Below are positions 2,694 through 60,526 of a stretch of DNA of 62,932 nt, in pieces. Each line of letters opens with the position of its first letter. Positions within the stretch are counted from its first letter, which is position 1. Origin of the DNA: Candidatus Aminicenantes bacterium (GTDB lineage: Bacteria > Acidobacteriota > Aminicenantia > Aminicenantales > Saccharicenantaceae); assembly GCA_041303965.1 (NCBI GenBank), contig JBFYOD010000165.1, positions 1 to 62,932 of the forward strand, read 5' to 3'. The position numbers and the translations under genes are program-made. The notes under the pieces were generated by a model. That model was not told the origin of the DNA. It made no database searches and saw only the letters and a list, made by a program, of their open reading frames with translations.

Positions 2694-3452
2694 ATGAGCG
2701 ACGTGGCCATCCGGGTCCGCGGGTTCAGCCAGTTCTTCGGCGGCGTAGGCAAGATCAACGCCCTCGACCTGGACGTCCACCGGAACGAGATCCTGGGCAT
2801 CATCGGGCCGGCCCGGAGCGGCAAGTCGACCTTCCTCTGCGCCCTCAACCGCCTCAACGATCTCGTTCGCGGCTCGCGTCATGAGGGGACGATCATGATC
2901 GACGGCCGGGACATCAATGCCCCCGACGTGGACGTCGTCGAGCTGCGCCGGAAGCTGGGTATGGTCTTCGCCACGCCGGTGCCGCTGCCGCGCTCGATCT
3001 TCGAGAACGTCGCTTTCGGCGCGAGGATGGCCGGCATCCACGACCGGGCCCGGCTCGACGTCCTCGTCCGGGACAGCCTGGAGAAGGGCGGGCTATGGGA
3101 GGAGGTCAAGGACCGGCTGAGAACGAGCGGCCTGAAGCTCTCGGGCGGCCAGCAGCAGCGCCTCTGCCTGGCCCGGATCCTGGCCGTCCTTCCTGAGTTC
3201 ATCCTGCTCGATGAGCCGACCTCGGGGCTCGACCCCATCTCGACGATGAAGATCGAGGACTCTCTGCGGAAGCTCAAGAAGGACTACACGATCATCCTGG
3301 TCACCAACAACACCAAGCAGGCGGCGCGGGTCGCCGACCGTACGGCCTTCTTTCTGAGCGGCGGGCTGGTCGAGGTCGGCCCGACGGCGCAGATCTTCAC
3401 CGCGCCGACGGATCAGCGCACGGACGATTACCTCCGGGGAAGGTTCGGCTAA
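2694..3452 (+). CDS. pstB: Phosphate ABC transporter ATP-binding protein (copy 1, H-loop His replaced by Asn)
   Basis: GPARSGKST, LSGGQQQRL, LLDEPTS, VTNNTKQA, C-terminal YLRGRFG. Confidence 0.92.
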   Translation: MSDVAIRVRGFSQFFGGVGKINALDLDVHRNEILGIIGPARSGKSTFLCALNRLNDLVRGSRHEGTIMIDGRDINAPDVDVVELRRKLGMVFATPVPLPRSIFENVAFGARMAGIHDRARLDVLVRDSLEKGGLWEEVKDRLRTSGLKLSGGQQQRLCLARILAVLPEFILLDEPTSGLDPISTMKIEDSLRKLKKDYTIILVTNNTKQAARVADRTAFFLSGGLVEVGPTAQIFTAPTDQRTDDYLRGRFG

Positions 3453-3458
3453 ACCGCC

Positions 3459-4211
3459 ATGAACATCATCGAAGTCCGCGGCTTGTCCTTCCACTACGGG
3501 AAGTTCCAGGCCTTGAAGGACATCAGCCTGGACATCGGGAAAAACCGTATCACCGCCCTCATCGGCCCCTCGGGCTGCGGCAAGACCACCTTCCTCCGCT
3601 CGCTCAACCGCATGACCGACCTCATCGACGACGTCCGGGTCACGGGAACCGTCCTCATCGACGGGGAGGACATCTACCAGCCCGGCACCGATCTGCTCCG
3701 CCTCCGCAAGAAGGTGGGCATGGTCTTCCAGAGGCCTAATCCGTTCCCGCTGAGCGTCTTCGACAACGTTGTCTATGGCCTCCGGGTTCACGGCATCCGC
3801 GACTCCAAGGTCCTCGAGGAGACGCTCGTCCGCAGCCTCGAATCCGTCCATCTCTGGGACGAGCTCAAGGATCGGCTGGACGTGAACGCGCTCACCCTCT
3901 CGGGCGAACAGCAGCAGCGGCTGTGCATTGCCCGCCTGGTCGCCGTCGAGCCGGAGATCCTCCTCATGGATGAACCGTGTTCGGCCCTCGACCTGGCGGC
4001 CACGGCCAACATCGAGAACCTCATGGCCGAGCTCAAAAAGCGTTACACGATCCTCATCGTTACCCACAACATGCAGCAGGCGGCCCGGGTCTCGGACGTT
4101 ACCGGCTACTTCCTCCTCGGCGAACTTGTCGAGATCGGCGAGACCCAGCAGATATTCACCAACCCGCAAGATTCCAGGACAGAAGACTACATCACGGGGA
4201 GGTTCGGTTAG
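3459..4211 (+). CDS. pstB: Phosphate ABC transporter ATP-binding protein (copy 2, signature LSGEQ)
   Basis: [41 protein letters not shown]. Confidence 0.93.
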
Positions 4212-4296
4212 GATTGGGGGTATAATGGGGAAAGAGAGTCTTGCGGTGAAACCTCCGGAGGGAAGGGTTCGTTTCTTTCTATAGGGAGGACGAACG

Positions 4297-5133
4297 ATGA
4301 AGAGACCGCTCCTGACGGCTTCTTTGGCGGCCGCGGCCGCCGTTCTTTCAGCGGCCTGCATCATGGTCATGGACCCGGAGCAGACGACGTCCTGGCAGCC
4401 CCGGGGCGAATTCCGGCGGACGGTCGAGTTCGCGGCGGGCGGAACGCTCGCGCTCGAGAACGAGTCCGGCAATGTCGAGATCACCGGTTGGGACAAGGAT
4501 GTCGTGGAGGTCGTCGCTCAGGGCGCGTCCGCGGAACCGAGCGAGAAACGCAAGGTCCGGGCCTACGGCTTTTGGGAGATCAAGCCCGACGTCGAGATCA
4601 AGCAGACCGATGGCCGCCTCTTGATCAGGACGCGTCCCTTTGACGGCCCTGGCGACCTGCCTGCCGTTGATTACACGATCCATGTTCCGAACTCGATCAT
4701 CCTCGGCGCGATACGCATGGGCGAAGGCGACCTGACCGTCTCCGATGTCTTCGGACGCATCGAGGCCTCGCTCGACAAGGGCGGCCTCGCCGTGAGCAAT
4801 TTTTCGGGCTCCGTCGACCTCTCCATCGGGACGGGCTCGGCAGACGTCGAGGTCCTCGACGTCCGTGACCAGGATACGATCGCCATTTCGTCGCGGGTCG
4901 GCGACATCGTCCTCCGACTCGCCGCCGGCACGGGCGCCCGGATCGAGGCCGAAGCGCCCCACGGCGAAGTGAGCAGCGATCTCGACCTGGGCGCGAAGAC
5001 GCCCGCGCCGAGCGTTTCGGGCCGGATCGGCCCGGGCGGGGCGGCCGTCACGTTGAAGGCCTCGGAGGGGAGGATCAAGATCATCGCCATCAAGGATGTC
5101 TCCGGGGCCGCCGGGACCATGAAAGGGAAGTGA
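4297..5133 (+). CDS. DUF4097-like beta-strand repeat (adhesin-like) lipoprotein
   Basis: Signal ending SAAC; repeated SG/GDI/GSV beta-strand pattern; RBS GGAGG. Confidence 0.7.
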   Translation: MKRPLLTASLAAAAAVLSAACIMVMDPEQTTSWQPRGEFRRTVEFAAGGTLALENESGNVEITGWDKDVVEVVAQGASAEPSEKRKVRAYGFWEIKPDVEIKQTDGRLLIRTRPFDGPGDLPAVDYTIHVPNSIILGAIRMGEGDLTVSDVFGRIEASLDKGGLAVSNFSGSVDLSIGTGSADVEVLDVRDQDTIAISSRVGDIVLRLAAGTGARIEAEAPHGEVSSDLDLGAKTPAPSVSGRIGPGGAAVTLKASEGRIKIIAIKDVSGAAGTMKGK

Positions 5134-5142
5134 GGGAAAACC

Positions 5143-5985
5143 ATGGACGATCTCCATCTCGACGACGAACAAGCGAACGAGCCGAAGAAGATCCGGGGCC
5201 TCGCGATCGCCATCTTCGCGATCTTGGCCATCGCCGCGGCCATGTATTATCTCGTCTTCATGAAGAAACCGGCCGCGCCCGTGGCCTCGCAGGAGCCGCT
5301 TGCCGAGTCGGTGACGCCGACTGGTGGGGGGAAGACCGCTGCCGGGGGATCAGGGGAGCCGCTCGGCTTTCCCCCCGTTGCGCTCGGAGAGAGCGACGCG
5401 GCCGTCCGGGAATTCGCCCTCGCCCTGTCGACGAACCCGGAGTTCGCCAAGTGGCTGTTGACGAAGGACCTCGTCCGGAAATTCGTCGTGGCCGTCGACA
5501 ATGTCGCCAACGGTCTGAGCCCCAAGCCGCACGTCGATTTCTTTGCGCTCACCGGGCAATTCCGCGTCGTCAGGACGAAAGAGGGCACATTCGTCGATGA
5601 GGCGTCGTATTCCCGCTACGACCCCGTCACCGGCGTCGTTCTTTCCTTGGATGCGGCTTCCGCCGCCCGCCTCTACAGGGCCGTCAAGCCGCTCCTCCAG
5701 GAGGCCTACCGGGACCTTGGCTATCCCGGCGTCGACTTCGAGGACACGCTCGTCCGGGCCATGGCCGAACTCCTCGGAACGCCCGTCGTGGAAGGCCCCG
5801 TCAGGCTGGAGCAGAAGATCCTGAGCTACGAGATGACCGACGAGAAGCTCGAGAGCCTAAGCCAGGCGCAGAAGCAGCTCCTTCGTCTGGGCCCGAAGGG
5901 CGTCCGCGCGGTGCAGAGTAAGCTGAGGGAGCTAGCCGCCGCGCTCGGGATCTTGGAATCGCGCCTGCCGCAATCAAAAACCTAA
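5143..5985 (+). CDS. DUF3014 domain membrane-anchored protein
   Basis: Single TM; VDNVANG, SYSRYD, PLLQEAYRDLGYP, LSQAQKQLLRLGP motifs. Confidence 0.8.
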   Translation: MDDLHLDDEQANEPKKIRGLAIAIFAILAIAAAMYYLVFMKKPAAPVASQEPLAESVTPTGGGKTAAGGSGEPLGFPPVALGESDAAVREFALALSTNPEFAKWLLTKDLVRKFVVAVDNVANGLSPKPHVDFFALTGQFRVVRTKEGTFVDEASYSRYDPVTGVVLSLDAASAARLYRAVKPLLQEAYRDLGYPGVDFEDTLVRAMAELLGTPVVEGPVRLEQKILSYEMTDEKLESLSQAQKQLLRLGPKGVRAVQSKLRELAAALGILESRLPQSKT

Positions 5986-6022
5986 ATCCCCGGGTCCGAT
6001 TGAGCCGCGGCCCAGAACGGGC

Positions 6023-6982
6023 CTATTTCCAGCGGAAGGGTTCGTCTTTCCTGAAATCGGGGACGAGATGTTCGTCCGGCCGGAAGGGTTCCGGCTGGAG
6101 GAAGAGGCGTTCGAAGCCGAGCCCGAGGGCCTCGTCGGCGGCCCGCCGGTATTCTTCCTCGGAAACGCCGCGCTGGATCTCGTCCGGCGCCCGGAAACAG
6201 GGATGATACTGGCTCATCAGGCTCAATCCGATGAACGGAGAGAGGTTCTCGCGGACCCACTTCAGGATGACGAGCGTGTCTTCGACCGAGCCGGGGAGGA
6301 TGAGATGCCGGATGACGAGCCCCCTGCGGGCCGTCCCGCCGGGTACGAGGTCGAGGGCGGGCTGCTGGAGGGCCATCTCCCGGACGGCTTCGGAGGCCCG
6401 GACGAAATAGTCTCCGGCCGCCGAATACTTTTTCGAGATGGCCGGCGAATGGTATTTCAGGTCGGGCAGATAGATATCAACGATCCCCTCCAGGGCCTGG
6501 ATGACCGCGATGCTATCGTAGCCGTTGGAATTCCAGACGAGGGGTATGTCGAGGCCTTCGGAGAGGGCGATGCGGAGGGCCCGGAGGATGGGCAGGACGA
6601 CGTGAGAAGGCGAGACGAAATTGATGTTATGGGCGCCTTTAACTTGGAGCCCGAGCATCAGGGCCGCGAGCTCCTCGTCGGTGACGGGCTTTCCCTCAAG
6701 GAGCCAGCTGATCTGGTAGTTTTGGCAGAAAAGGCACTTGAGGTTGCAGCCCGTGAAGAAGATGGTCCCGGAACCGGACTTGCCGCTGATCACCGGCTCC
6801 TCGCCGAAGTGGAGCAGGGCGTGGGAGACCGAGGCGAGACGGCCCGTTTGGCAGACGCCTTCCGCTCCCTTCGTCCTATCCACCCGGCAATCCCGCGGAC
6901 AGAGCGTGCAGGCCGATTCGAGAGGAGAGAGCCGGGCCAGGGCCTTCTCGACCAGCTCCAATTTCCTATCCGCATACGCCAT
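6023..6982 (-). CDS. PflX-family radical SAM protein
   Basis: CTLCPRDCRVDR, GSGTIFFTGCNLKCLFCQNYQIS, DIYLPDLKY, RHLILPG. Confidence 0.9.
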   Translation of the reverse strand: MAYADRKLELVEKALARLSPLESACTLCPRDCRVDRTKGAEGVCQTGRLASVSHALLHFGEEPVISGKSGSGTIFFTGCNLKCLFCQNYQISWLLEGKPVTDEELAALMLGLQVKGAHNINFVSPSHVVLPILRALRIALSEGLDIPLVWNSNGYDSIAVIQALEGIVDIYLPDLKYHSPAISKKYSAAGDYFVRASEAVREMALQQPALDLVPGGTARRGLVIRHLILPGSVEDTLVILKWVRENLSPFIGLSLMSQYHPCFRAPDEIQRGVSEEEYRRAADEALGLGFERLFLQPEPFRPDEHLVPDFRKDEPFRWK

Positions 6983-7050
6983 GCCGTCTATTTTAACACA
7001 GAGCCCCGGCCATTGATTCGAGGGGCGGCCGCGGGTATAGTAGGGGACTC

Positions 7051-7716
7051 ATGGAACTGATCAACAAGATCCTCGACATCGCGCTTCATCTCGACAAGTA
7101 TCTCAGCGCCATCATCCAGCAGTACGGCCTGTGGACTTACGCCATTCTTTTCGTGGTCATCTTCATCGAGACCGGATTCGTGGTCATGCCCTTCCTGCCG
7201 GGGGATTCCCTGCTTTTCGCCGCGGGGACGTTCGCCGCGCTCGGGGCGCTCAAGGTCGGTTGGCTGATCGCGCTCCTGGCCGCGGCGGCCATCATCGGGG
7301 ATACGGTGAACTACTGGGTCGGCCATTTCCTCGGGCCCAAGGTCTTCAGCAAGGAAAAAGCCCGGTTCTTCAAGAAGGAACACCTCGACAGGACGCACGC
7401 CTTCTACGAAAAGCACGGCGGCAAGACGATCATCATCGCCCGCTTCGTGCCGATCGTCCGGTCCTTCGCCCCCTTGGTCGCGGGGATCGGGCGGATGTCC
7501 TACGGCAAGTTCATCGCCTATAACGTCATCGGGGGGGTCGGCTGGGTCGTCCTGCTCGTCGGCGCGGGCTATTTCTTCGGCAACATCCCGGTCGTGAAAA
7601 ATAATTTTTCCCTGGCCATCCTGGCCATCATCGCCCTATCGACGGTCCCCATCGTGACCGAATATCTGCGCCACCATAAAAAAAAGCCGGTTTCTCCGCC
7701 CGAGCGTCGCCCCTAG
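7051..7716 (+). CDS. dedA: DedA family membrane protein
   Basis: ETGFVVMPFLPGDSLLF, HGGKTIIIARFVP. Confidence 0.93.
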   Translation: MELINKILDIALHLDKYLSAIIQQYGLWTYAILFVVIFIETGFVVMPFLPGDSLLFAAGTFAALGALKVGWLIALLAAAAIIGDTVNYWVGHFLGPKVFSKEKARFFKKEHLDRTHAFYEKHGGKTIIIARFVPIVRSFAPLVAGIGRMSYGKFIAYNVIGGVGWVVLLVGAGYFFGNIPVVKNNFSLAILAIIALSTVPIVTEYLRHHKKKPVSPPERRP

Positions 7717-7718
7717 GA

Positions 7719-7959
7719 GCCGCTCAGGCGGTGCTGAGGCCGCCCTGAAGACCCCCGTAGCGGAAGGGCGGCAGGGGAGCGAAGTCTTCGTAGCGACCAG
7801 CAGAAGTGAGGTGGAGCGGCCCGGAGCGGCACTTCTGGGAAGTATTTGAATCGAGTCTTGGATATCAGGTCTCAGAAGATTCCCTGGCCGACCGCCGGGA
7901 CTGGTTCCCTGGGGGGCCGGGGGGCAAAGGGTGGCCTCAGTACCGAAAACCTGAGCGGC
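7719..7959. repeat. MITE/REP-like modular palindromic element
   Basis: Imperfect terminal inverted repeats 7719-7746 and 7928-7959. Arms are shared with 50316-50349 (32/34) and 50379-50400 (22/22). The internal hairpin is shared with 47473-47527 and 48163-48217. Confidence 0.8.
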
Positions 7960-8006
7960 GATATCTCGGATGATGAATGACAGAAAATCGAGGATGAAAA
8001 CGCAGT

Positions 8007-8813
8007 CTATCGCTTGCCCGACGCCAGCGTTTTGGCCAGGCTGCGGAGCTTAGGGGAGGACAGGGCGTGGTGGGCGGTCATGTCGGTGTGCAACGGGGTC
8101 AACGAGATGTAGCCTTCATGGGCGGCCATGACGTCGGTGCTGGCGTCGCCGACCCGCCTGGGAACTCCGGTCCCGATCCAGAAATAGGTCGAGTTGCGCG
8201 GGTCGATCTTTTCGATGATCTCCGGGTCGTAGAACTTCCAGCCCAGTCGAGTGATCTTGACGCCCTTGACCGGCGGGGGCGGGATGTTGACGTTGAGGGC
8301 CGTCCCGGGCGGCAGGCCCGAGGCCAGGACGCTTGCGGCGATCGTCCGGACGGCCTCCGCGGCGAACTTCAGGTCGAAGCCGCCGGATGCGCCGGGAAGA
8401 AGAGAAACCGCGATCGACGGGATGCCGAGAAACGTCCCCTGGATCGCTCCGGCGACCGTCCCGGAGTAGTTGATGTCCTGCTGGCCGAGGTTCGGCCCGG
8501 GGTTCATCCCCGAAATGATGAGGTCGGGGCGGCGGGGGAGGAGCTTCTGGAGGGCGAAATAGATGCAGTCGCCCGGCGTCCCCTCGACGGCCCAGACCCT
8601 CGGCTTGACGTGTTGGATGCGAAGGGGCTGGCGGAGGGTGATGGCCAGCGAACAGGCGCTTTTTTCCCGGTCCGGCGCGACGATGTAGGTCCGGCCGAGC
8701 GTCTGAAGACGGCGGTAGAGGATCTGGATCGTCTCAACGTAGAAGCCGTCGTCGTTGGTCAGAAGGATGACGGGGCGGCGGGCGGCGGCCCGGGCCTTCG
8801 GGGCGTTTTTCAC
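8007..8813 (-). CDS. surE: 5'/3'-nucleotidase SurE
   Basis: ILLTNDDG, APDREKSACS, EGTPGDC, SGMNPGPNLG, YSGTVAGA. GTG start at 8813 overlaps the cupin stop; the longer ORF call runs through the tRNA. Confidence 0.92.
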   Translation of the reverse strand: MKNAPKARAAARRPVILLTNDDGFYVETIQILYRRLQTLGRTYIVAPDREKSACSLAITLRQPLRIQHVKPRVWAVEGTPGDCIYFALQKLLPRRPDLIISGMNPGPNLGQQDINYSGTVAGAIQGTFLGIPSIAVSLLPGASGGFDLKFAAEAVRTIAASVLASGLPPGTALNVNIPPPPVKGVKITRLGWKFYDPEIIEKIDPRNSTYFWIGTGVPRRVGDASTDVMAAHEGYISLTPLHTDMTAHHALSSPKLRSLAKTLASGKR

Positions 8814-9160
8814 GCGGACTTCTTGATCATGACGAGGAGCATCTTGAACCGGGTCACGGCCCGGAGGGCGTGCGGGATCGCGGCCGGCATGATGATCATC
8901 TCGCCCGGTTTGACCCGGTTGACCTTGCCGCCGATGGTGACGTCGGCCTCGCCGTCGAGGTCGATGGCCATGGCGTCGAAAGGCGCCGTGTGCTCGCTCA
9001 GCTGCTCGCCCTCGTCGAAGGCGAACGCGGTCACCGTGCCCGTCGGCTGGCTGACGACCTCGCGGCTGACGATGGCGCCGTCCTGGTAATTGACAAGCCC
9101 GGCCAGGTCGATGGCCCGGGCCTTCAGGTCTTCCGTGCTCTTGTCTTTGGTGATCTTCAT
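8810..9160 (-). CDS. Cupin domain protein
   Basis: GAIVSR, AFDEGEQLSEHTAP, MPAAIPHAL; ATG at 9160. Confidence 0.88.
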   Translation of the reverse strand: MKITKDKSTEDLKARAIDLAGLVNYQDGAIVSREVVSQPTGTVTAFAFDEGEQLSEHTAPFDAMAIDLDGEADVTIGGKVNRVKPGEMIIMPAAIPHALRAVTRFKMLLVMIKKSA

Positions 9161-9188
9161 TGAAACGATCCTTTGGAGGAAGAGAAAG

Positions 9189-9265
9189 TGGTCGGGACGG
9201 GCGGATTTGAACCGCCGACCCCATGCACCCCAAGCATGTGCGCTACCAGGCTGCGCCACGTCCCG
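9189..9265 (-). tRNA. tRNA-Pro(GGG)
   Basis: CGGGACG acceptor; anticodon stem CATGC/GCATG with loop TTGGGGT; GGTTCAAATCC T arm; CCA end. Confidence 0.96.
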
Positions 9266-9297
9266 AACAGAGGCCCCTTATTATAGCAGAAACGGGG

Positions 9298-9744
9298 CTA
9301 TTTACGACCTTTTTTCCGTCCGTCGTCGAGAGAGGAAACGATGTCCTGGAGCTCGTCGCGGACGTTGTTGAGGGCCTTGCGAAGCCGCTCCGGGTGGACC
9401 GGGTTCGAGCGGGCGAAGCCGAACTCGTCCTCGATCTTCCGCTTGATCCCGGCCATGGTCAGGGTTTTCCCGGCCATGAGCTCCTTGATCCGGCCGATGA
9501 TGGCCACGTCCTGCTGCCGGAAGAATTTCTCGCCGCTTCCCGTCAGGCCGGCGTTGAGGAAGGGGAATTCCTCCTCCCACGAGGCTAGGGTCGCGGCGTC
9601 GACGGCCGTCATCCGACTGACCTCGTCGAGCTTGTAGACGAGCTTCATCCTCGTTTTTTCGTCCTTGAAGAGATTGGCCTGAGCGGTTTCTTTTTTCACG
9701 GGCTTCCGGAGGCCAACATTAGCATTTCCCAGGGTTTTGGTCAA
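9298..9744 (-). CDS. MerR-family HTH regulator
   Basis: YKLDEVSRMTAVDAATLASWEEEFP. The merR - tRNA-Pro(GGG) - surE order is a familiar conserved arrangement. Start uncertain. Confidence 0.8.
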   Translation of the reverse strand: MTKTLGNANVGLRKPVKKETAQANLFKDEKTRMKLVYKLDEVSRMTAVDAATLASWEEEFPFLNAGLTGSGEKFFRQQDVAIIGRIKELMAGKTLTMAGIKRKIEDEFGFARSNPVHPERLRKALNNVRDELQDIVSSLDDGRKKGRK

Positions 9745-53676: not shown

Positions 53677-53765
53677 ATTCCCGGCCCATTTTCCATCATT
53701 TCGGCCTATAATAATAGGGAGAAAACGAAACTTTCCTGGGGAAATCGAGGTTTTAGGATACGAGA

Positions 53766-56339: not shown

Positions 56340-56365
56340 GAGACCTGCTCCCGTCTCTTTTTTTC

Positions 56366-56405
56366 GGGGACATGCTCCGCTTCAAGAGAAGCGGTGCGTG
56401 TCCCC
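56366..56405. repeat. GGGGAC...GTCCCC 40-bp hairpin, copy 1
   Basis: 37/40 identical to 57063-57102. Confidence 0.8.
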
Positions 56406-56422: not shown

Positions 56423-57013
56423 CTAGTCAGCAGGCAGGTTAAGCCATTTTTTCTTCAGCCGCTCGAACTCCTCGGCTGGGAGCTGCGTTTTGTCGAAATA
56501 GCCTTTCGCGGCTCTTTGCCTCAGGGCTTCGTAGAGGATGACCGCGACCGAGACCGACAGGTTGAGGCTCTGGACCATGCCCAGCATGGGGATGCGGACG
56601 ACCTTGTCGGCGAAGGCTAGGGCTCCCTCCGAAATGCCCGCGGCCTCGCTGCCGAAGACAAGGGCGATCGGCTTGGCGAAATCGACGTCCGTGTAGGGGA
56701 CGCCGTCTTTCCGGAGATGAGTGGCGACGATCTCGAAGCCCGCCTTCTTCAAGGGCTCAAGACACTCGGCCGGCGTCGGGTGGACGGCGATCTCGAGCCA
56801 CTTGTCGGCTCGGGTCGAGATGGCCTCATTGAAACGGAGGAGCTCCGGGTTGGGCGAAACGAGGTCGAGATGGAGGATGCCCGCCGCGTCGCAGGTCCGG
56901 ATGACGGCGCTGGCGTTGTGGGCGATGGTCACGCCTTCGAGCACGACGCGCAAGTCGGGCTGGCGCAACGATAGGACACGGGTGACCTTCTCGATCCTCT
57001 CGGGCGTCGGCAT
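56423..57013 (-). CDS. trmH: tRNA (guanosine-2'-O)-methyltransferase, TrmH/SpoU family
   Basis: RQPDLRVVLEGV..AHNASAVIRTCDA, ALVFGSE..GIS, IPMLGMVQSLNLSV. Confidence 0.92.
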   Translation of the reverse strand: MPTPERIEKVTRVLSLRQPDLRVVLEGVTIAHNASAVIRTCDAAGILHLDLVSPNPELLRFNEAISTRADKWLEIAVHPTPAECLEPLKKAGFEIVATHLRKDGVPYTDVDFAKPIALVFGSEAAGISEGALAFADKVVRIPMLGMVQSLNLSVSVAVILYEALRQRAAKGYFDKTQLPAEEFERLKKKWLNLPAD

Positions 57014-57062
57014 GTCGGAACTATATCAGACCGGCCGGGGGATAGGCAACGGACAGGAAATC

Positions 57063-57102
57063 GGGGACATGCCCCGCTTCAAGAGAAGCGGGGCATGTCC
57101 CC
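57063..57102. repeat. GGGGAC...GTCCCC 40-bp hairpin, copy 2
   Basis: Perfect 18-bp stem with AAGA loop. Confidence 0.85.
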
Positions 57103-57174
57103 AGATTTCCGTCCCCAGATTTCCGGCTTTAAATTGAACGATCGTATATGCCTCTTTAGGGGGGCCGACGCGCC

Positions 57175-57203
57175 TTGTAAATCGCTGCGACTTCCCTTAT
57201 AGT
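57175..57203 (+). promoter_or_regulatory. tRNA-Leu promoter
   Basis: TTGTAA-N17-TATAGT. Confidence 0.55.
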
Positions 57204-57213
57204 TATTGGCCGT

Positions 57214-57302
57214 GCCGGTGTGGCGGAACTGGCAGACGCGCGGGACTCAAAATCCCGTGCCCTTTGCGGGGCGTGTGGGTTCGATTCCCTCCACCGGCAC
57301 CA
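57214..57302 (+). tRNA. tRNA-Leu(CAA)
   Basis: GCCGGTG/CACCGGC acceptor; CGGGA-CTCAAAA-TCCCG; long variable arm; CCA end. Confidence 0.96.
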
Positions 57303-58296
57303 CCAATATCAACAACTTAGACCTCAGATAGAGGTCTGCTTTGCTGAGGGGTCAAGGGAGCCAAAAGGAGCCAAAAACAGCCGTTTTCAGCCACCAACAC
57401 GAAAGGTGACACGAAAGGTGGTTGGAAGCCGAAAGGGCCGGATACCCTGACGCTTTCCTTTTGACAGACCAGATCATTCGGACTTTTAACTAGCGGTTCC
57501 CCGGCTTCTTATCTATTTTTGGGCGGCGAGGCGCGTTATTTCCACGGTAATTTGCGTGTTCTTGACGTATCGGACTCCCCTCACGCTTCCTCTCACGCAA
57601 AATTCTAAGTCGAAACCAGTGTTCATCAAACGGTTGATAATTCGGATCGCCTCGTTTTGAGGGACAGCCTCATTGTTTGCTGTATAGAGGACATCAAATC
57701 CTGAAGTCCAGCCAGTGAGATAGGTGTTTCTTTCCATCCTGATTTTCGAAGTGCGAGTGAACCTGTTTTGTCCGGTCGAGACGCCGGCTAAATTGACATC
57801 CGCGATTTCCGTCCCAGCCCCCCCCGTGCTGACCGATATGCCCGCCGGGATTACGGGGGACTTGACGGCTAAATTTAGGCCGGTGTTAAAAATCCGATAG
57901 GCGCCAGGACCCCAAGACCACCAGTACTGTCCCGTGAATTCGAAGAAAACGGCATCGCTTAAAGGGGAGGGGGGAACATGAACTGTCAATTGAGGGCTTG
58001 AAACAAAGTCCTCCAAATTGCCCTGATCCGCGGGTACATACGTGTATCCGTTAACTGGATCGAACCCCCCCGCAGTTAGGACGTACTCAATCAGCTTGGG
58101 TTTTTGCTGCTGAGCTAGGACTAGGGTTGAGATAAGAACTACGCCAAGAAGGGACACCAATACACGAATGCAATTTTTCATTTGATCCTCCTTGATTTGT
58201 ATCCTAATTGTAATGTCAGATAGAAATCAAGTGGAACTTTTCTGGGAGGACCATTGCCCGAGCACTGCCCCGAAAAAGACTCCGTTCTGAAGGCCA
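57246..58296. mobile_element. Integrase-less mini-island 1 at tRNA-Leu (about 1.05 kb)
   Basis: Lies between the anticodon loop and the first displaced tRNA 3' half; IHF consensus at 57307-57319; tandem repeats 57357-57376 and 57397-57420; visibly A/T-richer. Confidence 0.7.
57513..58181 (-). CDS. Secreted hypothetical protein (island cargo)
   Basis: RBS AAGGAGG; signal peptide; atypical codon usage. Confidence 0.75.
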   Translation of the reverse strand: MKNCIRVLVSLLGVVLISTLVLAQQQKPKLIEYVLTAGGFDPVNGYTYVPADQGNLEDFVSSPQLTVHVPPSPLSDAVFFEFTGQYWWSWGPGAYRIFNTGLNLAVKSPVIPAGISVSTGGAGTEIADVNLAGVSTGQNRFTRTSKIRMERNTYLTGWTSGFDVLYTANNEAVPQNEAIRIINRLMNTGFDLEFCVRGSVRGVRYVKNTQITVEITRLAAQK

Positions 58297-58351
58297 TTAA
58301 AAATCCCGTGTCTAGCAATAGGCATGTGGGTTCGATTCCCTCCACCGGCAC
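58297..58351 (+). repeat. Displaced tRNA-Leu 3' half (att junction 2)
   Basis: Runs from the anticodon loop through the acceptor; 26-bp block identical to the tRNA; its own variable arm TGTCTA-GCAA-TAGGCA. Confidence 0.9.
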
Positions 58352-58577
58352 GCCTTATTTCCCTGGGATGTCAGCGATTTACGATGAGCCCTGACCCTCT
58401 CATCGCCTTCCGTCCGAAACCGTAATTTCACTGCGCTTTCAGCCTATTTTGTCACGCCACCGTCACACGGCGAGAGGCCTGCCTTCTTGCCCGGCGAATC
58501 GTCCTACCACTTGAATTAATATTGTATTTCAACAGTGCCTTAGGTTAAACTACGGACAGTTTAATAGGAGGGGAAGA

Positions 58578-59117
58578 ATGAAAAAGTATTTCTATGTGGT
58601 CCCGTTGGTCCTTGTGTTCTGTTTCACCATTGCCTGTCAGGACAAAGCGGCGATGGCCGAGCTGGAGAAGTATAAGGCACAGGCGAAGGTCGAACAGCAG
58701 AATAAAGAGATAGTCCGCAATTTCTTTGCGGCCATAGACAAGAACGATTTCGGCAAACTCAAAGAGCTTTCATCCGATGATTTTTCACTTAAGGCTCCCG
58801 GTCTAGCTGAACCGTGGGGCTTCGACGGGATTATTCAAGCCATCAAAGCCCATTATGCTTCATTCCCGGATTGGAAGCATGCGATTGAAGACATGGTGGC
58901 CGAAGGCGATATCGTGGCAGTTAAACTCGTTCAAAATGGGACTCACGAAGCTCCATATGAGGGAATCCTCCCGACTGAAAAAAATGTGACAATGCCAGCT
59001 CAATGTCTACTTGTAGTTTTAAACGGGAAAGTCAAGGAATTTTGGGTTGTTGAGGACTATCTTGGTTTTTATCAACAGCTCGGCATGGAGCTAAAGCCGG
59101 TAGAGGCGAAGAAATAG
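58578..59117 (+). CDS. SnoaL-like ester cyclase family lipoprotein
   Basis: Signal ending IAC; QNKEIVRNFF, FPDW...IEDMVAEGD.V...GTH. Confidence 0.85.
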   Translation: MKKYFYVVPLVLVFCFTIACQDKAAMAELEKYKAQAKVEQQNKEIVRNFFAAIDKNDFGKLKELSSDDFSLKAPGLAEPWGFDGIIQAIKAHYASFPDWKHAIEDMVAEGDIVAVKLVQNGTHEAPYEGILPTEKNVTMPAQCLLVVLNGKVKEFWVVEDYLGFYQQLGMELKPVEAKK

Positions 59118-59148
59118 AATTCGGCACGAGCTATGAAGGAGGGGGAAA

Positions 59149-59691
59149 ATGAAGAAGTGTCTTTGTGCCGTTCCGCTCGTTCTCCTGCTTTGCTTCTCAT
59201 TCGCCTGTCAGGACAAGGCGGCAAAGGCGAAGCTGGAAATAAATAATGCCCAGGCGAAGGTTGAGGAACAGAATAAGGTTCTTTTAGGCCGGATGTGGGA
59301 AATGTGGAATAAAGGAAACTTTGAGGCGTGGAAGCAAGTGCATGCCGATGAGTATGTGTATTACTCGCCATCAAATAGCACAAAGGGCTTATCCAGAGAG
59401 GAAACAATTGAAATGGGGAAGGCATTTTTCAAGAGCTTCCCTGATGCCACGACGAGCATTGAAGAACTGATTGCCGATGGGGACAAGGTTGTCACGAGGT
59501 GGATATTGAGGGGGACTCATAAGGGAGAATTTTCGGGAATCTCTGCAACTGGGAATAAGGTCGAAAATAGCGGCATTATGATTACTCGAATTGAAAATGG
59601 AAAAATTGTCGAGGATAAAGAAGATTATGATACCCTTGGCATGATGCAACAACTCGGCATGGGGCTCAAGCCGATAGAAGCGAAGAAATAG
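59149..59691 (+). CDS. SnoaL-like ester cyclase family lipoprotein (tandem paralog)
   Basis: Signal ending FAC; FPD...IEELIADGDKVVTRW...GTHKGEF.GI.ATG. Confidence 0.88.
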   Translation: MKKCLCAVPLVLLLCFSFACQDKAAKAKLEINNAQAKVEEQNKVLLGRMWEMWNKGNFEAWKQVHADEYVYYSPSNSTKGLSREETIEMGKAFFKSFPDATTSIEELIADGDKVVTRWILRGTHKGEFSGISATGNKVENSGIMITRIENGKIVEDKEDYDTLGMMQQLGMGLKPIEAKK

Positions 59692-59770
59692 AATTCGCCT
59701 GTAGGAATCACGAGCGAGGGACGTTTTGCGACGTTCCCAACCGAATTGTTGCCGAAGGGAGACCCTGGCC

Positions 59771-59827
59771 CTCATAATCCCGTTCGGGGCAACTCGAGCG
59801 TGGGTTCGATTCCCTCCACCGGCACCA
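59771..59827 (+). repeat. Displaced tRNA-Leu 3' half (distal att, probable native half)
   Basis: CTCATAA-TCCCG; variable arm TTCGGG-GCAA-CTCGAG; identical T arm and acceptor; ends CCA; host-like GC sequence resumes after it. Confidence 0.9.
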
Positions 59828-59943
59828 GGATCCTTTCCCCTAAATATGGCCAGGCGGCGTCTGGGCGGGCACTCGTTTCTGCCCCCTTGACATCGGTTTC
59901 CGATCGGCGTGTAATTTCCTCTGTAGCCAAAAGGAGGGGATCC

Positions 59944-60526
59944 ATGACGCAGCCTTCGTTAAGGACCGTCCTGATCGTGGGACTCATGGCCTTTTTCGTG
60001 GGGGCGAGCGCCGCTTGCCGAGGCGAGAGGACATACACGGTCGAGGTCAAGGACGGAGTCCGGTACGTCCACAACCTCAAACCGGTTTCCGAAAAACCCG
60101 TGGCGGACCTCTCCTTTGTCCGGAAGATCGGCGAGCTCGAGTCGAAGGACCCCGATTTTCAATTCGCGAGACCCGATGATGGTCGATTTCGGCGATCCGG
60201 ACAGGCTGGTCGTGTCTACGATGTCTTCGGAGTTCCATGTTTTCGATCATGACGGTATGTACGTCGATCGGTTCCGCCTGCCCCCATACCGGGGAATAAG
60301 TCCGGCCATCCTGAGCTCCGACAGGCTCGTCGCCTATGCGTTCCAGATGAATGGCGAGAACAGCCGGGACAACCATGTTCTGGCCATCTTTGATTTCAAA
60401 GGCGGCATCCCGGGCGAGGTCGTTAAATTCGACAACATGACCATGCACGGCGACCATGTCTTTTTTGTCGATCCCTTCGACCAGGCCTGCGTGTACGAAT
60501 ACACGGTTGTCGACAACCGAGATTGA
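59944..60526 (+). pseudogene. Fragmented beta-propeller lipoprotein gene
   Basis: N-terminus (signal ..AAC, VEVKDGVRYVHN) in one frame and propeller-like remainder in another frame; far shorter than the 380-aa relative at 37987. Confidence 0.65.

Follow-up and report, generated by a model that had tools for sequence, protein, structure and literature searches.

The locus studied here begins at position 57214 of a 62,932-nt stretch of DNA from Candidatus Aminicenantes bacterium (contig JBFYOD010000165.1; the whole stretch is called the window below), and consists of an intact tRNA-Leu(CAA) gene followed by two small units, each of which is closed by a further tRNA-Leu 3′ half (Table 1). A 26-nt block of T-arm and acceptor sequence (GTGGGTTCGATTCCCTCCACCGGCAC) was found in three exact copies at 57275, 58326, and 59800, all on the + strand, with none expected from 100 shuffles, and a 50-nt direct-repeat family begins at 57251, 58302, and 59776, its spacings of 1051 and 1474 bp representing the unit lengths. 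As read directly from the sequence, the tRNA identity of the second and third copies begins at 58300 (AAAATCCCGTG) and 59771 (CTCAtAATCCCGT), in both cases inside the anticodon loop. ARAGORN reported a single tRNA-Leu(CAA), the intact gene at 57214-57302 on the + strand, and called a valid tRNA-Leu(CAA) when the native 5′ half was joined to any of the three 3′ halves. These halves feature three different variable arms, each with a compensated 5-bp stem and a 4-nt loop. Since the stems differ, the halves trace back to three separate functional tRNA-Leu genes and did not arise by duplication in place.

Together, the two units encode three secreted proteins, and they differ from their surroundings in guanine-cytosine (GC) content, with values between 0.44 and 0.55 over 57450-59700 compared to 0.60-0.66 in the flanks, the units lying 12-15% below the host. 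Searching the whole 62.9-kb window by tblastn with the integrases of two related loci, L021 and L044, yielded no integrase (best E = 0.19), and Pfam recognised no recombinase domain in any of the three cargo open reading frames (ORFs). Within the window, the array has no autonomous element beside it, and Rfam returned nothing but tRNA above the gathering score. These results bear out the first-pass annotation of this DNA, which had described two further tRNA 3′ halves sharing a 26-bp block (its boundaries and ours agree to within 3 nt), units of about 1051 and 1474 bp carrying secreted-protein genes, as supported by the repeat spacing and the ORFs, and the absence of a recombinase, as supported by the negative integrase search.

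The array is genuine and not a misassembly. An identical arrangement was recovered from at least eight independent metagenome-assembled genomes (MAGs) of one series, and also from a contig of the Joint Genome Institute (JGI; L145), which spans the junction between unit 1 and unit 2 with 98.9% identity over 1319 nt. Identity of the array copies in these MAGs and the JGI contig to the window ranged between 98.9% and 99.9%. An assembly error, which the first-pass annotation had named as a possible way for its proposal to fail, is contradicted by this independent recovery.

Table 1. Features of the tRNA-Leu(CAA) locus, with positions counted from the first base of the window
Feature	Position	Strand	Basis
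Intact tRNA-Leu(CAA)	57214-57302	+	ARAGORN; Rfam tRNA, 54.8 bits
Left (P′-type) 'B arm' of unit 1, ~120 nt	57303-57423	+	Conservation behind tRNA-Leu in relatives
Cargo of unit 1: 222-aa secreted protein (signal peptide)	57513-58181	-	ORF list
Non-coding right end of unit 1	58182-58299	+	Integrase tblastn, repeat scan
tRNA-Leu 3′ half no. 2 (variable arm 'var2')	58300-58351	+	Repeat family, variable-arm comparison
Left (P′-type) 'A arm' of unit 2, ~135 nt	58352-58486	+	Homology to L031, metagenome scan
Cargo of unit 2: 179-aa SnoaL-family probable lipoprotein	58578-59117	+	Pfam PF07366, E = 4.6e-26
Cargo of unit 2: 180-aa SnoaL-family probable lipoprotein	59149-59691	+	Pfam PF07366, E = 3.6e-36
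Non-coding right end of unit 2	59692-59770	+	Integrase tblastn, repeat scan
tRNA-Leu 3′ half no. 3, then native flank	59771-59827	+	Variable-arm and flank comparison

The order in which the units arrived can be deduced from the variable arms. The arm of the third half, TTCGGGGCAACTCGAGCG, and that of the intact gene in L023, L027, L033, and L083 differ at one base, and the flank behind it (CCAGGATCC...) is of the type seen behind uninterrupted tRNA genes. In L139, the last fragment and the flank (90.6%) are shared with the window, and another unit lies in front of them. Because relatives without an insertion and L139 share its arm and flank, the third copy represents the displaced native half. 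The arm of the intact gene (GCCCTTTGCGGGGC, 'var1') differs from that of close relatives (TTCGGGGCAACTCGAG / TCCGGGGCAACTCGGG), and the variable arms of copies 1 and 2 are typical of other Aminicenantes lineages (L048 and L044), var2 resembling the arm of the distal fragment in L044. As an incoming element brings a new 3′ half, the unit adjacent to the tRNA is the newest. The functional tRNA is a chimera of the native 5′ half and the 3′ half at 57251-57302 contributed by unit 1, and half no. 2 arrived with unit 2 and was pushed downstream by the integration of unit 1. The proposal of two successive insertions in the anticodon loop, put forward in the first-pass annotation, is thus upheld by a distal half that has the native variable arm and flank.

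Behind the tRNA gene, the B arm of unit 1 comprises a hairpin (57320-57336), two copies of GAGCCAAAA (57358-57377), and two copies of ACACGAAAGGTG (57397-57420). The arm repeat occurs nowhere else in the window (chance expectation, 0), and the arm is kept at 72-93% behind the tRNA-Leu gene in L025, L028, L034, L037, L081, and L021; the repeat pair ACACGAAAG is also present in the integrase-adjacent arm of the island in L021. The right end of the unit contains no integrase remnant detectable by tblastn and no arm repeats within its last 300 nt. Unit 1 in its entirety (57250-58350) aligns to a unit in L165 with 84% identity over 1104 nt; this homologue is bounded by Leu fragments, lies inside an island bounded by tRNA-Gln copies, and is adjoined on its left side by a var1-like tRNA half. 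The 222-aa cargo protein matches no Pfam family, and only four homologue clusters were found among 5.8 billion proteins searched. Its AlphaFold2 model, of moderate quality (pLDDT 71), gave weak matches to jelly-roll and lectin structures (TM-score ≤ 0.48), and a beta-sandwich or jelly-roll fold is predicted.

The A arm of unit 2 contains a conserved core at 58400-58424 and GTCAC-N6-GTCAC repeats at 58451-58466. It is 92.5% identical over 134 nt to the sequence behind the tRNA in L031, whereas the SpoU proteins of the two genomes share just 78% identity. In an alignment of 64 unique copies, the arm was found to carry two or three G(T/G)CAC repeats with a spacing of 11 nt, which co-vary between copies (GTCAC..GTCAC versus GGCAC..GGCAC). 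As for unit 1, no integrase remnant (tblastn) and no arm repeats (last 300 nt) were detected at the right end. The two SnoaL genes of this unit are tandem paralogues joined by direct repeats D1 and D3. Two other explanations of the A arm were dismissed: an RNA gene, since RNAalifold, run on the 64 unique copies, predicted no covarying pair and a consensus energy of 0, and Rfam gave only tRNA; and a dif- or attC-like palindrome (CGATGAG-N10-CTCATCG), the left half of which is lost in copies behind tRNA-Gln.

Through the flanking SpoU methyltransferase gene, 80 loci were located in species-representative genomes, nearly all of them belonging to Candidatus Aminicenantes, and tRNA-Leu(CAA) adjoins SpoU in most of them. 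The distance from the tRNA to the conserved downstream OmpA-family gene ranges from 254 bp in L045, representing an empty site, to more than 9 kb, and additional tRNA-Leu 3′ fragments were detected in L021, L024, L025, L027, L044, and L083. The site is a hypervariable hot spot, at which the number and content of units vary among relatives, as would be expected from the earlier proposal. The A arm is lacking in the empty-site relatives L045 and L065. Two islands at the same tRNA-Leu, in L020 (6716-7591) and L044 (7817-8608), encode proteins with N-termini that, as read from the sequence, are TIR-like (ISWGGD and ISFSGED motifs), which suggests that these genes may represent anti-phage defence cargo.

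Integrase-bearing elements occupy the same tRNA in several relatives. The genes L021:285-1325 and L044:3795-4904 match PF00589, homologues are found in the tRNA-Leu islands of L163, L120, and L175, and in all five the integrase gene lies with its 3′ end directly against the displaced fragment. In the window and in the fragments beside integrases (L021, L044, L083, L120, and L163), tRNA-likeness starts within the anticodon stem-loop. Members of this integrase family are numerous (1446 proteins at E ≤ 1e-30). In L021, the B arm heads a 9.6-kb island encoding a large terminase, an AAA_25 helicase, and a PF00589 integrase, this arm being present in integrase-bearing satellite-like islands of 8.6-9.6 kb at the same tRNA of relatives (L021 and L163). 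L025 is a decay intermediate: beside its fragment lies a truncated integrase of which only residues 209-329 remain, and the B arm of its unit is 85% identical to that of the window. The A arm, in turn, is the attachment-site arm of a complete 8.6-kb element found in L149, L143, and L098 (10340-12335 in L098). Among its products are a capsid of the HK97 type, an AAA_25 helicase, and an integrase carrying HTH_17 at its N-terminus; a terminase-like ORF is also present. In L149, this element lies beside hrcA, at a non-tRNA site, flanked by a 21-bp direct repeat (CTGTCAAATGACTGAAAGTCA). The idea that L149 is a circular element was abandoned; it is integrated, because its ends consist of the 21-bp direct repeat and host DNA.

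Complete elements feature an additional part. In L021, L142, L149, L163, L175, and L178, paired repeats lie 60-90 nt before the core on the integrase side, and the integrase-side arm of L149 holds an A-type repeat pair. Such a pair was found in none of the eight integrase-less units tested over their last 300 nt, both window units included. At the other extreme, L106 and L158 contain empty 255-bp units made up of arm and fragment only, which look like deletion scars. A helper integrase could not be traced to the MAG series of the window, the two NCBI-only clusters checked belonging to other assemblies.

In total, 18 unique units bounded by tRNA-Leu were compiled, of which 14 have no integrase, three have one (6.1-9.6 kb), and one has a remnant (4258 bp). 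Among the 14 integrase-less units, 13 measure 255-1574 bp; the remaining one, of 9087 bp, consists of a single gene resembling GH94 glucan synthases. This giant GH94/cyclic-glucan-synthase-like gene (L083, 796-9657, - strand, 2953 aa) makes up the whole unit from tRNA-Leu to fragment. The cargo of the mini-units consists mainly of small secreted proteins and lipoproteins (SnoaL/NTF2-like, DUF1579, and PEGA). The 25-nt core of the A arm was detected in 67 metagenome contigs, which were gathered by searching for the arm itself, so that the support they lend to a dedicated non-autonomous class (below) is partly biased. In these metagenomes, the arm heads dozens of integrase-less units of 0.25-1.6 kb. 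It follows the intact gene or a 3′ fragment of tRNA-Leu(CAA), tRNA-Gln(CTG), and tRNA-Arg (ACG, TCG, and CCG), on a constant strand and at a fixed distance, and arrays of mini-units are found behind tRNA-Leu, tRNA-Gln, and tRNA-Arg(ACG). Within arrays, the arm stands after the tRNA and after every internal fragment, and native DNA stands after the last one. Because the last fragment always precedes native DNA, the arm represents the left end of each unit. Scans of IMG/VR with the A and B arm motifs gave no matches.

Similar sequences follow the A arm behind different tRNAs. In L083 (Leu) and L150 (Arg-ACG), the arm is followed by GH94 genes whose products share 50% identity, the L150 homologue being located at 2813-9535 (+ strand), and the A arm of L004 (Leu) together with the adjacent sequence has an 82% match in L100, behind a tRNA-Arg-like 3′ end. 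As a separate observation, displaced second tRNA-Gln copies with the anticodon CTA instead of CTG stand before A arms in L111 (824-893, - strand) and L112 (~2190-2260, + strand). ARAGORN labels the L111 copy a full tRNA, 'tRNA-Pyl(cta)'; these copies could be decayed, or could be amber-suppressor tRNAs borne by the element.

L004 belongs to the same MAG series as the window, to which it is 99.9% identical over 10.6 kb upstream and through the tRNA with var1. Directly behind the T-arm block, the sequence switches to another A arm (92.8% identical) and an L108-like unit, and unit 1 is absent. The breakpoint falls in the shared T-arm block, which indicates homologous exchange and not an event in the anticodon loop. 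All other MAGs of the series contain the standard array, and look-ups with the SnoaL proteins for array variants gave the standard array or nothing. Excision polymorphism was considered for the contig breaks at 57257-57259 and dropped, as relatives that co-occur and share the tRNA 5′ half could account for them. Likewise, the swapped unit order of L106 and L158 was downgraded as an indication of shuffling, because repeats of ~190 nt can mislead short-read assembly. L004 also contains ~292 extra bases at window position ~53693-53749 (measured in L004 only), in a population that is otherwise 99.9% identical; at this position, a 94-aa ORF was called in L004 and L006 and not in the window.

Taken together, we favour, with modest confidence, the reading that the locus represents two remnants of satellite-like tyrosine-integrase elements, both without an integrase, which accreted in tandem. 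Tyrosine integrases of one family would cross over in the anticodon loop of tRNA-Leu(CAA), thereby swapping in the 3′ half of the element, and each integration would push the previous 3′ half downstream. At least two insertions took place, the first by an A-arm element with the two SnoaL genes and the next by a B-arm element with the 222-aa gene. Of each, a stub remains, comprising its own tRNA half, an arm of ~120-135 nt with phased repeats, and one or two cargo genes, the integrase gene and the integrase-side arm with the matching repeats being gone. Turnover of the array would be due both to fresh insertion at the tRNA and to homologous recombination between copies of the tRNA and arm modules. 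The phased repeats are probably arm-type integrase-binding sites, and the arms common to the window units and L021, L025, and L149 suggest the derivation of the units from autonomous elements, the integrase side presumably having been lost by deletion. In the lambda-Int paradigm, both arms contribute to the integrative and excisive complexes. By this standard, stubs that have lost the integrase and the integrase-side repeats would not be competent on their own and could not move by themselves, and would now be passive.

Several findings weigh against this reading. The sizes of the Leu-bounded units are bimodal with just one intermediate, and random deletion should yield a continuum, which argues against plain decay. 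None of the ~80 A arms sampled heads a tRNA-bounded unit with an integrase, the only integrase-bearing A-arm element, L149, residing at a non-tRNA site. Furthermore, A arms are conserved at 92-94% compared to 72-83% for cargo and ~90% for host flanks, entire units are met again in other arrays, and A arms followed by similar sequence are found at other tRNAs. Bimodality, the distribution of integrases among A-arm elements, arm conservation, and the recurrence of units fit better with a dedicated non-autonomous class than with plain decay. It is possible, if rather unlikely, that the units are such dedicated mini-elements, moved as circles in trans by resident satellite-like integrases that would need only the core and the P′ arm, the array then being a tRNA-anchored device for gene capture. 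In addition to the predominance of integrase-less units, 13 of them of no more than 1.6 kb, among the 18 bounded by Leu, this would suit the occurrence of such arrays behind three tRNA species and of A arms after tRNA-Arg(TCG) and tRNA-Arg(CCG), the co-varying repeats of an arm conserved beyond cargo or host flank, the homologue of unit 1 at another array position inside the tRNA-Gln island of L165, the A arms with homologous cargo or sequence behind different tRNAs (L083/L150 and L004/L100), and the size of the integrase family. Set against it are the lack, in the units, of the integrase-side repeats found in every complete element examined, the absence of an integrase from the 62.9-kb window and of one traced to the MAG series, and the identity of the array in at least eight MAGs. 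Moreover, the cargo homologues are more diverged than the host flanks and hence give no sign of recent transfer, and the order swap of L106 and L158 could have been produced by faulty assembly at the 190-nt repeats. The wider proposal that A- and B-arm units are miniature elements, each made up of a tRNA 3′ half, an arm of ~130 nt with integrase-binding repeats, and one or two secreted-protein genes, and shuttling in trans between tRNA-Leu, tRNA-Gln, and tRNA-Arg, integron-like in their working and of lambda-type attachment-site (att) origin, is likewise regarded as doubtful.

Recombination among host repeats was also considered, the tRNA half with its A arm being, on this account, a repeated host sequence from which arrays arose by duplication or unequal homologous recombination and not by site-specific integration. 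Repeats of ~190 nt suffice for RecA-dependent exchange, the L004 breakpoint lies in the T-arm block, and in L031, L048, L116, L150, L159, and L161 the A arm stands behind intact tRNAs with no distal fragment within several kb. Nevertheless, this origin appears improbable: in every array, native flank, and never an A arm, comes after the last fragment, the fragments begin in the anticodon loop, the three halves of the window have different and compensated variable arms, and the GC content of the units is 12-15% under that of the host. In addition, the A arm belongs to the attachment site of an element that bears an integrase and is not inserted at a tRNA, and the empty-site relatives (L045 and L065) lack this arm. 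Least credible of all is a chimera assembled across the 26-31 nt repeat. Breaks at 57257-57259 or 57300 do occur in several contigs from this population, but the same order of parts was assembled independently in at least eight MAGs and in the JGI contig, and the exact repeat of 26-31 nt is shorter than the k of 121 given in a contig name of the same MAG series. Host-repeat origin and misassembly are therefore largely excluded.

Tandem accretion at a single site has been described before. The cis-mobilizable elements (CIMEs) related to ICESt1 of Streptococcus thermophilus arise by successive site-specific integration at one att site, some of them, stripped of integration and transfer genes, persisting only as att-flanked cargo (PMC5704250). 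Like these, the window units are integrase-less cargo piled up at one att site. The units may depart from CIMEs in one respect: by definition, attL and attR still function in a CIME (PMC5704250), and of these sites the window keeps the core copies and the P′ arms, the P-arm repeat pairs being absent from both right ends. Window-type units are, moreover, of much smaller size (0.25-1.6 kb) and have satellite- or phage-like parents, in contrast to the conjugative parents of CIMEs. The ssrA islands of Dehalococcoides are likewise arranged in tandem and bounded by direct repeats of the 3′ end of a small-RNA gene, some of them having no integration module and being proposed as CIMEs (PMC3146451). 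The window shares the tandem units between 3′-end direct repeats and the lack of an integration module, but the Dehalococcoides islands involve a serine recombinase, the T-loop of the transfer-messenger RNA gene, and a 20-bp repeat; with their rdhA operons, they are also larger (PMC3146451).

A close likeness exists to the tycheposons of Prochlorococcus, tyrosine-integrase elements that target a few tRNA genes, some of them cargo-bearing or resembling phage-inducible chromosomal islands, according to the parts of the preprint considered here (bioRxiv 10.1101/2020.12.28.424599). In the islands described there, newcomers push older elements inward, and partial tRNAs and fragmented integrases are scattered (bioRxiv 10.1101/2020.12.28.424599). 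Compared by description, the flanks of full and partial tRNAs, the tandem stacking, and the position of the newest element beside the tRNA are all found in the window, and relatives carry AAA_25 helicase, capsid, and terminase genes. The window differs in belonging to the phylum Acidobacteriota (Aminicenantes), and no conserved 135-nt arm heading integrase-less mini-units behind five tRNA species is described in those parts of the tycheposon account. The literature combining Aminicenantes, integrase, and tRNA revealed, by titles and the openings of abstracts, no report of such arrays.

A regenerated tRNA with a displaced 3′ fragment in direct orientation and an anticodon-centred crossover characterizes 2083 of the 3919 islands collected by Islander, which admits to a tandem array only members possessing an integrase gene (PMC4383910). 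The window has the same regenerated tRNA and displaced fragments, namely an intact tDNA and fragments of the same tDNA in direct orientation (three copies, + strand), with the canonical crossover sublocation, the anticodon loop, at both 58300 and 59771, and an integrase gene is found inside neither unit. Owing to the Islander requirement, stubs like these are systematically missed.

The locus resembles an integron in its ordered array, its small units of one or two genes, and the recombination site between units, the newest unit lying beside the anchor, which here is a tRNA gene. It differs in having no integrase at its head, no attI or attC, and no common promoter, and in carrying genes on both strands. 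The upstream neighbour of the tRNA is the SpoU methyltransferase gene and not intI, no attC-like imperfect palindrome at the unit boundaries appeared in the inverted-repeat list for 56900-60400, and the 222-aa gene (- strand) and the SnoaL genes (+ strand) each have their own GGAGG-type ribosome-binding site. With three defining features examined and none of them present, the locus is not an integron, and the label 'integron-like' in the first-pass annotation does not hold. Calling it an undescribed system was also too strong, as tandem accretion, partial tRNAs, decayed integrases, and integrase-less CIMEs have all been described. That proposal was to fall if relatives showed full-size integrase islands of which the units are remnants and if no small units recurred; full-size islands with the same left arm do exist (L021 and L163), and the integrase of one island, in L025, is truncated, but small integrase-less units recur widely elsewhere. 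The novelty lies in the population of mini-units keeping one conserved arm across five tRNA targets.

Much of the flexible gene content of bacteria resides in genomic islands beside tRNA genes, and the accumulation of single genes within them is poorly resolved. Units that lack an integrase are dropped by standard island finders. The locus and its relatives provide a clean, small-scale record of accretion in an uncultured phylum, in which the order of arrival can be read from the variable arms, together with a decay series leading from complete element to truncated integrase, stub, and empty scar. If stubs were mobilisable with half an attachment site, they would represent a new route of gene capture and a compact substrate for studying the arm-site needs of integrases.

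Some further features were noted around the array. The first native gene behind it (59944-60526) seems to be disrupted, a lipoprotein being split into frames of 102 and 136 aa, the N-terminus of which resembles a 384-aa protein in L112; in this vicinity, L001 is only 92.6% identical to the window over 59957-60213, compared to 99.7% for the rest of the contig. On both sides of the SpoU gene, at 57045-57124 and 56364-56405, a GC-rich palindromic element of ~60-80 nt (GGAAATCGGGGACATGCCCCGCTTC...GAAGCGGGGCATGTCCCC) was found, which looks like a repetitive extragenic palindromic (REP)-type repeat doubling as a bidirectional terminator. The upstream copy holds an exact 14-bp tandem repeat, two copies of GTCCCCAGATTTCC at 57097-57124, and L001 shows a single alignment gap in the palindrome region, probably corresponding to one 14-mer copy. 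Finally, contigs L003 and L008 of the same population are without the 108 bp at 57094-57201, either as a real deletion variant or as an assembly collapse at the palindrome; this gap removes most of a promoter-like TTGTAA-17-TATAGT sequence (57175-57203) located just 5′ of the tRNA.

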